Positions 320 through 33,073 of a stretch of DNA of 64,000 bases are shown here, piece by piece. This DNA comes from a virus, in IMG/VR virus record IMGVR_UViG_3300025000_000078, positions 10,947 to 74,946 of that record, one strand, 5' to 3'. Positions within the stretch are counted from its first letter, which is position 1; each line of letters starts with the position of its first letter. The notes under the pieces were generated by a model, which worked only from the letters and a program-made list of their open reading frames with translations, did no database searches and was not told where the DNA came from. The position numbers and the translations under genes were made by a program.

Positions 320-727
320 CGATATATTCACATTGGTCGTCAGTCAATGCAGTTCTCTTATGAACTTCCCTAATTTTCACTAGGATACTAGACTATATCT
401 TCATCCTTAATACAATAATGTATTAAGGAGTTACCCATTTCGTAAAGAACTCTGAAAAGTTCACCTCACCATTATTGACTTGTGAGTCTACTCCTACTCT
501 ACTAAAAGTAGCGTCATCAGATAGTCGTTGAACTTTATTCTAATAATATTAATATATTAGAATCTTAGCTGCGGATTACCTAATTTCTTACCTTGTTACC
601 ATACCTAAGGCATTACCCTTCGCCACTATAATATTGCTATTATAGTTTGGTAGTAAGAGATTTAAAGGGCTTCCCCGACAATTAAAGTAGTATTAACATA
701 ATATTACTATTATGCCACCCTAAATTT
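320..727 (-). mobile_element. Group I intron (recA intron 2), ORF-less, family A
   Basis: Core elements on the minus strand: TTGTCGGGGAAG (P), AATCCGCAGCTAAG (Q), TTCAACGACTATC (R), AAGATATAGTCTAG (S). The upstream exon ends in U and pairs with intron GGGUG. The intron ends in G. Confidence 0.9.
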
Positions 728-742
728 AGGTGCATTCCCACC
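728..742 (-). CDS. uvsX: RecA/UvsX micro-exon 2 (15 nt, GGNAP)
   Basis: GGT GGG AAT GCA CCT lies between two introns and restores DQSIP-GGNAP-IYYA, matching the RecA PGGNALKFYA motif. Confidence 0.85.
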
Positions 743-1131
743 CGTAATGTTCACACTATTCGTTAGATAGTGCAGTTCTCCTATGAACTTCCCTAGAATT
801 TCCCTAGGATACCAGACTATATCATCATCTCTATATTTTCATATATAGATGCTTCCTATTTCGATTTAAGGGAATCTCACCCACTCACTTGAGCCCTACT
901 CCTATTGCTTATTTCAAAGCCAAGGGATAGTCGTTGAACCTTTCTCTAATAAATTAGAGGCTTGGCTGCGGATCACTCAATCCTAAAACATTATTACTAT
1001 ACCTTAGATAGTTAATCTAAGCCATTAATACATTACTATATTAATTTAGTAGTTTTAGGCTCTAAGAGATTCCCCGACAATTAAAGAAGTTATTCAACAT
1101 ACATTACTGTATGAGGACCCACAAATCTCGA
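743..1131 (-). mobile_element. Group I intron (recA intron 1), ORF-less, family A
   Basis: Same P/Q/R/S elements; exon ACCU pairs with intron GGGU; ends ...CATTACG. Confidence 0.9.
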
Positions 1132-1905
1132 AGGTATCGACTGGTCCATCTTCATATATAATAACTGTGGTTGTGTTTTATTCATTGGAGAAATTTCTAT
1201 TTTTTGATTAATATGATTTATTGCAATAACATTTATATTATATGCTTTTATAATTGGCATCAGTCTCTTATAGAATTGAGCTAATGCTTTAGCAACTCTA
1301 TTAGCATATGTTCCACCTTCCATTTCATTAGAAGTATCTTTTGAAGCAACAGTTGGGATTGAGTCAATAATCATAATCGTTGGAACAAAAGCTTTAATCG
1401 GTCTATTAAATTCATCGAATAATCCAGTATTATAAGTATAGTCTTTTCTATTAGCTTCTTTTTCCTGAGCTATTTCAACTATACTATTAAATATATCTTC
1501 AATATAATTTTTTTCTTGTTTTAATATATATTTATCATCAAGTTCTTGTTGTGTCATAGATGTTACATTTTTTATTCTGGTGTACGATAAAACTTGTTCT
1601 AAATCAAAATGTTGAACAAATGCATTATCATCAAATCTTCTAACAATATTAGCGGCAATTTGAATAGCAAAAGTAGTTTTAGCGGTACCAGATTTACCTA
1701 TGATTGTCATAAAAGTACCACCGACTATACCAATAGAAGAATATGTTGTTATTAAAGTTTCATCTAAACCTCTAACTTCAACCATATACCCATTCCTATA
1801 ATCAAATGGTACAAAACCTGTTGGATAACAAATCGATGTTTGTGTTGGATTAAATAAACCTTTTTTATCCTTTTCTCTTAATCTTGAAAGCATTTTATTA
1901 GCCAT
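1132..1905 (-). CDS. uvsX: RecA/UvsX-like recombinase, exon 1
   Basis: Walker A GKSGTAKTT, Walker B IMIIDS, IAINHI motif; the listed ORF reads through into the intron to a stop at 1090. Confidence 0.88.
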
Positions 1906-6175: not shown

Positions 6176-6267
6176 TGATATACCTCCTATTTTTTATTTT
6201 TAAATAATTTTATTCGGTATAAATTAGATTATAAAATTTACACCGAATAAAATATAATAGTATTATA

Positions 6268-6708
6268 TTATAATGTTAATGAAGTTATTTGTACAAAATC
6301 AGCTGATTCTGAATAATAACCATTAGATGTACCATACCAACTAATTGTCACATATCCTTTTATTGTTGCAAGTTTATAGAATGTCCAACTATAACTTGTT
6401 TCCCCATCATCTTTATTACCAGAATCACTTGTTTCTTCGGCCATTAAGATAGGTGAATCAATCAAATCTTCAATATTTCCAATTATATCATGCATATCAA
6501 CTGATTCACAACACAACTGACAATGAAACATAGAATAAATTGCACCATCCGAACAGTAGAAATTTATTTTTTCACTACTTTTATCGATATCAATTTTAGT
6601 TAAGGTTTTTCCAATAAGTTCATTGAAGGGTAATGTAATAAAGTATTCTTCACAGTTAACAACTATTTTTTTCAATTTTTTATTTTTTTTCTTTTTCAAT
6701 AGTTTCAC
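6268..6708 (-). CDS. Conserved phage hypothetical protein
   Basis: CCESV...[11 protein letters not shown]...WYG.SNGYYSE pattern typical of a widespread phage family. Confidence 0.65.
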
Positions 6709-31288: not shown

Positions 31289-31706
31289 TTATTTTTTTTT
31301 ATTTAATGCTGATGAAAAATCAAATAAATCTTCTTCTTTATCTTCTTTAATTACTTTTCTTTCTACTGCATTTCTTTTACCTTTTTTATCTATATTTAAA
31401 TCAACACCTTCAAAATCTGTTGATAAACTTTCTTCAGATAATGAATGTTCTAAATAGATATCATCAATAAGTCTAATTCTATTACCAACTTCAAATGGAT
31501 GGTTAAAATAACTTAATTCGTAAGTATCCCTATATCTTATTTTAACTCTTTTAAATGTTAAATAATAATTATTAGTATTCTTTTTCTTTTCTATGTTAAT
31601 GATAATAACAACGTCACTATTTTCAATAACTTCAAAAGCTGAGCCTACATTACCTCTACCCATGAATCTTGCTAAATCTTCTTTATTAGCCATTAGTGCA
31701 CTATCT
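31289..31706 (-). CDS. dnaB: DnaB-like replicative helicase, exon 3
   Basis: GSAFEVIENSDVVI and K.R arginine-finger region; begins after the terminal G at 31707. Confidence 0.85.
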
Positions 31707-32714
31707 CGTTGGTTCACATAGGTCGTTAATCTATGCAGTTCTCTTAAGAACTTCCCTAGTTTTCACTAGGATACCAGACTATATCATTATCTCTCGGTAT
31801 AAGAGATATTTCCCGTTTCGATTTAAGGGATTCTCACCCACTCACTTGAGCCCTACTCCTAATGCTTATTTCAAAGCCAAAGGGATAGTCGTTGAACCTT
31901 GTTATTAAATATCGTATAAATTACTTATATGTCTCCATGATTTTTTATTTCTTATTTTTTTAATTAAATCTATAGTTTTTGGTTTATTTCGTATATCATC
32001 ATTATGTTTTATTCTATCATATATTTTACCCTGACTTAAACCTTGTTTGTGTAATAAACATATCTGATGAACTGTTTCTTCATTATAAACATTTAATACA
32101 CTATTAATCCCTCTAGGATTCCATAATCCAATTTTTATAGCATGTACATTATTTTCTGAAGGAGTTACCCATTCAAGATTTTGATAATAATTATTATTTT
32201 TAAAACCATCTTTATGATTAACAAATATTTTATATTTAGAATTAGGAAAATCTAAAAAATGTTTGGCTACTAATTTATGAATTGATTGATTTATAAAAGT
32301 AGCTTTATTTCTATATAAAGAAACTTTTAAATAACCATTTGGTCTCTTTTGAGGTTTTAAAATCTTATTTGATGTTTTAGAATAAACTCTACCATAATTA
32401 CTTAAAAGATAATCTGGGAAAAGAGGCATCTGTTTCCATTCTTCATTAATAATTATTTGTATAAGTAATTTATTCATTTTTATTTTTTCACCCCTTTATT
32501 TTATACGATTTTATTTTGAGTTTAAATATTTTTATACGATATTTAATAACCTTGGCTGCGGATCACTCAATCCTAAACATTATTACCATACCTAAGACAT
32601 TATTCTTAGCCACTAAAATATTTCTATTCTAGTTTGGTAGCTTAGACTATAAGAGATTTCCCGCAATTAGAGAAATTTTCATATGATATTTCTACCATAT
32701 GCCGCATATAATTT
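31707..32714 (-). mobile_element. Group I intron (dnaB intron 2) with HNH ORF, family A
   Basis: P1 GCCGU/GCGGC; P/Q/R/S elements; ORF enclosed by an extended P6 stem (31902-31920 pairs with 32531-32549). Confidence 0.9.
31905..32477 (-). CDS. Intron-encoded HNH homing endonuclease
   Basis: EEWK...SNYGRV (NUMOD4), HKLVA, VNHKDG.K.NN...NLEWVT.SEN..HA. Confidence 0.9.
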   Translation of the reverse strand: MNKLLIQIIINEEWKQMPLFPDYLLSNYGRVYSKTSNKILKPQKRPNGYLKVSLYRNKATFINQSIHKLVAKHFLDFPNSKYKIFVNHKDGFKNNNYYQNLEWVTPSENNVHAIKIGLWNPRGINSVLNVYNEETVHQICLLHKQGLSQGKIYDRIKHNDDIRNKPKTIDLIKKIRNKKSWRHISNLYDI

Positions 32715-32743
32715 ACGGCTATTGCGCCAGTTCTATTTAATTG
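32715..32743 (-). CDS. dnaB: DnaB micro-exon 2 (29 nt, QLNRTGAIAV)
   Basis: Restores the helicase motif VITAH-QLNR and keeps frame into exon 3. Confidence 0.85.
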
Positions 32744-33073
32744 CTTTATTTTCATACTATTCGTTAAATAGCACAGTTCTCTTATGAACTTCCCTAAGTT
32801 TCCTTAGGATAAAAGACTATATCATTATCTCTTATTTAAAGAGATACTTTCCTTTTCGATTTAAGGGATTCTCACCCACTCACTTGAGCCCTACTCCTAT
32901 TGTGTATTTCAACACCTATGGGATAGTCGTTGAACCTTTCTCTAATAGTTTATTAGAGACTTGGCTGCGGATTACTCAATCTTTTTATTGTATAATAAAA
33001 AGCTCTAAGAGCTTCCCCGACAGTTAAAAAAGTTTTTCATTATAAATCACTTTATAATGCCACCTATAAATTG
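32744..33073 (-). mobile_element. Group I intron (dnaB intron 1), ORF-less, 330 nt, family A
   Basis: P1 CCAU/GUGG; P/Q/R/S elements; ends AAATAAAG. Confidence 0.9.

Follow-up and report, generated by a model that had tools for sequence, protein, structure and literature searches.

Two related self-splicing-type introns lie 15 nucleotides apart in a UvsX/RecA-type recombinase gene of a phage

The Recombinase Gene and Its Spliced Product

The DNA analyzed here, hereafter the window, is a stretch of 64,000 nt that belongs to a 74,946-nt metagenomic fragment of the IMG/VR collection, rated 31% complete, and derives from an uncultured giant phage. Close to its first letter, and entirely on the minus strand, lies a uvsX/recA-like recombinase gene that is divided into three exons. 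The first of them (1132..1905) appears in the list of open reading frames with an ATG at 1905 and a translation of 258 amino acids, which includes the Walker A motif GKSGTAKT; its final letters, ...GAT ACC T, bring it to an end at 1132. It is followed by an ORF-less group I intron of 389 nt (intron 1, 1131-743), which starts at 1131 with UCGAGAUUUGUGGGUCC... and has its terminal G at 743. Then comes a micro-exon of only 15 nt, GGTGGGAATGCACCT, which encodes Gly-Gly-Asn-Ala-Pro (742-728) and was delimited by alignment with homologues. A second ORF-less group I intron, this time of 408 nt (intron 2, 727-320), starts at 727 with AAAUUUAGGGUGGC... and has its terminal G at 320. Exon 3 (ATC TAT TAT; IYYANLL...) extends from 319 to position 1 and continues beyond the window edge. 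It was delimited by tblastn and with the help of a further locus of the same record (L006), where the stop codon is found 142 nt beyond the window start, so that this exon encodes 153 amino acids in all. The tblastn matches of exon 3 to relatives begin at the very first residue of the exon, and the three exons, once joined, give a UvsX/RecA-like recombinase of 416 amino acids.

In the unspliced sequence, the exon 1 reading frame stops 13 codons into intron 1, at an in-frame stop at 1092-1090, and intron 2 presents an in-frame TAA at 712-710. According to a review, such early stops after the 5′ splice site are common in group I introns of bacteria and phages (PMC3984707). The list of open reading frames contains none of 25 amino acids or more within either intron. 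The junctions that use the G at 743 and the G at 320 are the only ones that restore the frame. A first-pass annotation of this DNA had placed an exon at 728-742 between twin ORF-less introns and had proposed that it could be skipped in frame. The coordinates proved to be exact, with group I matches on both sides, and the omission of the 15 nt, by which 1132 would be joined to 319, does leave the recombinase frame intact. The layout is thus real: two related introns of the self-splicing type lie 15 bases apart in a gene of the UvsX/RecA type. A match to RalA at 1212-1341, with 17 bits against a cut-off of 170, was discarded as noise.

The Micro-Exon Encodes a Conserved Recombinase Motif

The protein encoded by exon 1 shares 33-37% identity with the UvsX-like recombinases of phages AR9, PBS1, BpSp and LPJP1 and of Staphylococcus jumbo phages (tblastn), with E-values from 2e-35 to 1e-29 against annotated UvsX-like recombinases. 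Among Pfam families, the KaiC-type ATPase scores 38.1 bits on exon 1, and RecA scores 20.7 bits, under its cut-off of 27. A relative of the window recombinase, L011, matches both E. coli RecA (3CMU, E 2e-15) and T4 UvsX (3IO5, E 1.4e-4).

In the Bacillus phages AR9, PBS1 and BpSp, in the Listeria phage LPJP1 and in the Staphylococcus jumbo phages, uvsX is devoid of introns, and the spliced product aligns without gaps to the intron-less UvsX of AR9, LPJP1, Madawaska and BpSp. The homologues present the pattern DESIPGG[TSKG][SA].Y.AN, against DQSIP/GGNAP/IYYAN in the window (slashes marking the exon limits), and the GG is invariant among AR9-type homologues. Furthermore, about 20 closer intron-less relatives, coming from viral and metagenome contigs and sharing 47-80% amino acid identity, have exactly 15 nt at the position of the micro-exon. 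These encode GG[NVFHT]A[PA], and GGNAP itself is found in five distinct intron-less relatives, e.g., GGTGGAAATGCACCA. The comparison with intron-less homologues, which the first-pass annotation had put forward as the check on its exon, hence turned out in favor of that exon, with no gap at this position. One intron-less relative (L013:3775-3789, 73% amino acid identity) reads CGHAA, with a Cys in place of the first invariant glycine; this may be a sequencing error, or else the recombinase may tolerate a cysteine.

The same annotation had attributed to the micro-exon the conserved GG at the end of loop L2 of RecA, and this attribution is borne out by the intron-less L011 (80% identical), whose ESIPGGNAPIYYA is aligned with ETTTGGNALKFYA in the E. 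coli RecA of 3CMU, GGNA to GGNA. The Gly-Gly motif that follows loop L2 is present only when the micro-exon is included. In RecA, the amides of Gly211, Gly212 and Asn213 bind the phosphates of single-stranded DNA, as stated in PMC9065326, which cites RecA-DNA structures. A twintron is ruled out, given that the conserved GGNAP depends on the 15 nt that separate the introns.

Two Group I Introns Conserved in Sister Genomes

The same twin introns, together with an identical micro-exon, are found in two large phage genomes, L010 (IMGVR_UViG_3300025000_000053, 249,853 nt) and L028 (Ga0209318_1000019, 233,207 nt). Their exon 1 proteins are, respectively, 96 and 94% identical to that of the window, and the whole locus of L010 is ~83% identical to it in DNA. 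In the scan of viral contigs for the pattern formed by the micro-exon and the start of intron 2, only the contig of L010 and another one, L025, which ends inside intron 1, were retrieved, and no single-intron intermediates were seen.

Rfam model RF00028, whose gathering score is 50 bits, matches intron 2 at 738-368 above that score (60.8 bits, E 1.8e-14) and intron 1 at 1134-792, 3.3 bits under it (46.7 bits, E 3e-10). The orthologues in L010 reach 68.3 bits for intron 1 and 67.9 bits for intron 2. In the P1 helix of intron 1, the exon letters ACCU (1135-1132) pair with the guide GGGU (1120-1117), and in that of intron 2 the letters CACCU (732-728) pair with the guide GGGUG (720-716), each with a U.G pair at the splice site. 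GTTCAACGACTA and GATATAGTCT show no variation across the six introns (two each from the window, L010 and L028), and of the 75 pairs predicted by RNAalifold, 22 have changed on both sides and yet are still paired. P3, P9 and the P9 extensions covary among these introns. Some pairs of the RNAalifold model are misdrawn; P2, for instance, is in fact a local hairpin (CAUACA/UGUAUG; CAUAAUA/UAUUAUG). The presence of 70-90 extra nucleotides between the R element and P3′/P8 suggests subgroup IA. The canonical P10, as judged by eye, is weak in both introns (2-3 pairs). RNAalifold also drew a helix of 4 bp in which the stretch immediately 3′ of the guide pairs with the third to sixth nucleotides of the 3′ exon (intron 1, CUCA/UGGG; intron 2, AUAA/UUAU). 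This helix was not counted, because a canonical P10 would form on the other side of the guide and because only two independent classes represent it.

Near-identical cores had been reported for the two introns of the window. This description holds for the core blocks, that is, P3/P4, the R and S elements and P9, to which the near-identity is confined, and does not extend to the introns as a whole, which are 69% identical. Throughout the three genomes, orthologous introns are 81-90% identical, whereas intron 1 and intron 2 share 61-75%, which argues for two old lineages rather than for a fresh tandem duplication. Moreover, exon 1 ends with CCCU in L010 and L028 and the guide of intron 1 is GGGG, as compared with ACCU and GGGU in the window. 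This constitutes a compensatory change within the P1 of intron 1: the A-to-C substitution at position -4 of the exon, which turns one Ile codon (ATA) into another (ATC), is accompanied by U-to-G in the guide. In the three-way alignment, a block of 52 nt (694..745, minus strand) is invariant; it starts with the final three nucleotides of intron 1, covers the micro-exon and takes in P1/P2 of intron 2. It is the longest invariant run, those of the catalytic core being of 22-31 nt, and it is consistent either with several constraints acting on the same letters (those of coding, of the intron 1 3′ splice site and of the intron 2 P1) or with a tract of recent conversion. As judged from this comparison of genomes, the twin-intron arrangement is inherited and under selection.

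The fact that intron 1 of the window falls below the Rfam gathering score could be taken as a sign of a decaying pseudogene with dead introns, or of a single intron spanning the whole 812 nt, with a protein devoid of GGNAP. Readings of this kind are scarcely credible: the exons are all open, with 94-96% conservation in two other genomes, complete cores, compensatory changes and correct termini are found in each of the introns, and the five residues are present at this position in every homologue.

As regards the peripheral parts of the introns, both members of the window pair carry a hairpin extension of ~50-65 nt in the P5 region (986-1050 and 596-660), which is also found in the uvsX intron of another relative, L018. 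The orthologous introns of L010 and L028 lack this extension or have a shorter version of it. In turn, the 3′ half of intron 2 of the window is near-identical to that of L028 and not to that of L010. The introns have the appearance of mosaics whose modules can be exchanged. A search for near-identical DNA in annotated phages returned only a match of 88 nt to an intron core of an Enterococcus phage, which is uninformative.

An Intron Family and a Probable Insertion Hot Spot

A profile built from the six uvsX introns and run on the 64-kb window detected at least eight members of the family. These are the two uvsX introns (1131-743 and 727-320), two introns in dnaB (33073-32744 and ~32718-31706) and others at ~8164-7201, ~53315-52278, ~54934-53543 and 64000-63802, the last one being cut by the window end. 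Five of the eight are interrupted by large insertions, which presumably correspond to endonuclease ORFs. The dnaB introns make up a second twin layout on the minus strand (31706-33073), in which the first intron is ORF-less and the second one, at ~32714-31707 when delimited from the flanking exons, bears an ORF. The exon between them, of 29 nt (32743-32715), encodes QLNRTGAIA plus GT, and its skipping would shift the frame.

A same-family intron of 1.26 kb, with an HNH ORF of 293 amino acids, occupies positions 3775-5026 of L018 (62% amino acid identity), where its insertion site is 4 nt upstream of that of intron 1. A P1 of 8 bp and a P10 of 6 bp indicate the frame-restoring junction CT/T CCA GGT (the slash marking the junction), which would give a terminal A and not the canonical G; the Rfam search at E <= 0.01 did not report this intron. 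Altogether, three insertion sites are found within 20 nt of the same conserved recombinase motif across related phages. In L010, a further group I intron (6185-6477, 74 bits) is located downstream of uvsX, ~1.2 kb from where that gene ends. It presumably sits in the gene after uvsX, which in AR9-type relatives is that of an RNA polymerase beta subunit.

We consider it very probable that the locus contains two distinct, though related, ORF-less group I introns of the same family, each able to remove itself, at a distance of 15 nt in the recombinase gene of a jumbo phage of the AR9/PBS1 type, and that the exon is what was left between their insertion sites. Each intron would rely on a P1 guide, a U.G pair at the splice site, a catalytic core and a terminal G of its own, and most likely excises itself through the usual two-step reaction of group I introns, self-splicing being predicted from these elements. 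The resulting product, ...DQSIP-GGNAP-IYYAN..., would recover the sequence that is contiguous in intron-less relatives. The micro-exon would then be the remainder between two neighboring sites of a hot spot of intron invasion, and the target of insertion would be the stretch where the recombinase gene is most conserved, the one that encodes the Gly-Gly-Asn-Ala in contact with the phosphates of single-stranded DNA. The piling up of mobile introns on a conserved target would be the simplest reading of the 15-nt spacing. Subsequently, the arrangement would have been inherited by the small clade formed by the window, L010 and L028. As to the arrival of the introns, it may be conjectured that they came by homing, by means of endonucleases supplied elsewhere, and that ORF loss or co-conversion followed; no homing endonuclease was identified for the sites of intron 1 and intron 2.

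Order of Splicing and Exon Skipping

The first-pass annotation had considered that the micro-exon, as 3′ partner of intron 1 and P1 strand of intron 2, forces ordered splicing. This is not supported, as the two introns use opposite ends of the exon and share no base: all that intron 1 requires is its terminal G plus, at most, a few nucleotides from the start of the micro-exon, and intron 2 pairs with the last five (CACCU). Since no nucleotide must serve both introns at once, the pairing imposes no order of splicing, and the removal of either one first leaves a normal substrate for the other and leads to the same mRNA. In practice, splicing may nevertheless be sequential through crowding, because two ribozymes of ~400 nt on a tether of 15 nt may exclude each other. 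In addition, a fold of the micro-exon on itself (GGUG/CACC, -5.6 kcal/mol) competes with the P1 of intron 2 (-7.2 kcal/mol).

It had also been pointed out that both upstream exons end in ACCU and both introns have a GGGU guide. In the window this is correct for the two introns; in L010 and L028 it fails at intron 1, where CCCU and GGGG are found. The shared ACCU/GGGU is specific to the window genome and the lineage does not conserve it. This matters for the two routes by which tandem introns have been described to skip the exon between them (PMC10136302): a hybrid "single large ribozyme" assembled from two similar introns, and a stepwise process in which the second intron takes the junction left by the first one as a distal 5′ splice site, provided that the P1 strands match. 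Skipping of the latter type is suppressed when the P1s differ (PMC10136302). The hybrid route is disfavored here because the P3 helices of the two introns are mismatched at 2 of 6 pairs. The stepwise route, as far as the predicted pairings go, is open and mechanistically possible in the window genome. The end of exon 1 in the window pairs, in the correct register, with the guide of intron 2 at -4.5 kcal/mol and with its own guide at -3.6 kcal/mol, against -7.2 kcal/mol for the cognate pairing of the micro-exon with the guide of intron 2. In L010 and L028, exon 1 pairs with the guide of intron 2 solely in a shifted register, with a U-A pair replacing the U.G. The compensated CCCU/GGGG of these two genomes indicates that selection has followed the P1 of each intron and not cross-reactivity between them.

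On these grounds it is possible, if somewhat short of likely, that some transcripts of the window phage join 1132 to 319 by unprogrammed skipping, as splicing noise without regulation. Once intron 1 is gone, the guide GGGUG of intron 2 could bind the distal ACCU at the junction of exon 1 and the micro-exon, bypassing the proximal CACCU; alternatively, a free exon 1 could displace the weakly held exon of 15 nt. The product without GGNAP would probably be dead for DNA binding. The stepwise use of a distal 5′ splice site has been demonstrated for tandem introns with identical P1 (PMC10136302), natural cases are reported in Twort, Coxiella and SIOphi, and the above energies show the end of exon 1 binding the intron 2 guide better than its own. 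Against such skipping weigh the stronger cognate P1 of intron 2, which acts in cis, the P3 differences that counter a hybrid ribozyme, and the loss of the productive register in both sister genomes.

A different matter is whether the twin introns are kept for the sake of a regulatory isoform without GGNAP, e.g., a subunit that poisons the filament. The skip is in frame, the P1 5′ strands are identical in the window genome, and the micro-exon with P1/P2 of intron 2 forms the most conserved 52 nt of the locus. Even so, programmed alternative splicing appears very unlikely, considering that the ACCU identity is lost in both relatives, with P1 compensated and differentiated, and that the residues which would be deleted are those by which RecA contacts the phosphates of single-stranded DNA (PMC9065326). 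Furthermore, most relatives have no introns, so that no such isoform can be essential to the lineage, and the exon of the same-family twin layout in dnaB would be skipped out of frame. A more specific version of this idea, which we regard as highly improbable, is that, owing to the shared ACCU/GGGU, intron 2 acts on the junction of exon 1 and the micro-exon often enough to be useful and that the shortened form enters filaments and cannot hold DNA. If this were true, the mixture of full-length and shortened proteins would act as a brake on recombination, set by the ribozymes, in the window phage, and the sister phages would have disabled it through the A-to-C and U-to-G change in the P1 of intron 1.

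Known Systems With Short Exons Between Introns

Alternative splicing in a phage, which the first-pass annotation had proposed for this locus, is already published for Twort orf142 and for SIOphi (PMC10136302, PMC11878797). The locus is a further case of a published phenomenon, and no new kind of gene control. What is distinctive here is the Gly-Gly motif of a recombinase as the target, along with the occurrence of matched and differentiated P1s among sister genomes.

The closest parallel is offered by introns 2 and 3 of Twort orf142, which flank an exon of 23 nt in a tail gene and for which skipping has been seen experimentally (Landthaler & Shub 1999, cited through PMC10136302 and PMC3073962). 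Like the case described here, it consists of two similar ORF-less phage group I introns around a very short exon, in a configuration permissive for skipping; in the window, the similar introns that flank the short exon are the same-family pair with 69% identity. The differences are that the Twort exon is of 23 nt, in a tail gene and with observed skipping, whereas the present one is of 15 nt, encodes an active-site motif of a recombinase and is known from sequence. With respect to the Twort type, the P1 5′ strands match in the window (ACCU twice) and differ in L010 and L028 (CCCU versus ACCU). For Coxiella 23S rRNA, PMC10136302 describes the skipping of an exon of 34 nt between tandem group I introns. 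Engineered tandem Tetrahymena introns around an exon of 24 nt, in turn, were used to test the mechanisms of skipping (PMC10136302); that construct is artificial and of the IC1 type, with identical copies, in contrast to introns that are 69% identical and have different P3 helices. In this context, the window and its two sister genomes constitute a natural pair for testing inclusion versus skipping by tandem group I ribozymes, in surroundings that are otherwise comparable.

In Bastillevirinae, a small exon exists in the ribonucleotide reductase gene of phiNIT1 and exon skipping in SIOphi (PMC11878797). There too, several group I introns accumulate in single core genes of DNA metabolism in large phages of the Bacillus type, a small exon between two introns had been missed by annotation, and products that join the first 5′ splice site to the second 3′ one were detected (PMC11878797). 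Those phages belong to another lineage and the genes are others, and the junctions are supported by cDNA sequencing (PMC11878797). Mini-exons of less than ~4 codons between group I or group II introns are routine in mitochondria, where they encode highly conserved residues (PMC10352661). Like the micro-exon, they are missed by gene finders and recognized only from gaps in protein alignments; they differ in being organellar, often maturase-dependent and without any virus involved (PMC10352661). At the present locus, gene callers report a truncated recombinase, and the Gly-Gly piece is invisible without alignment to relatives. A step that takes introns into account is needed when intron-rich jumbo phages are annotated.

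Finally, recombinase genes are recurrent targets of group I introns, with published examples in the recA of Bacillus cereus-group bacteria and in the Rec of Twort-like phages (PMC3984707, PMC5618024). Those introns are single, unlike the pair described here, and the ones of Twort-like phages carry an endonuclease ORF (PMC3984707, PMC5618024). With the present locus, the L2/GG motif of the recombinase joins the list of sites at which phage introns pile up.
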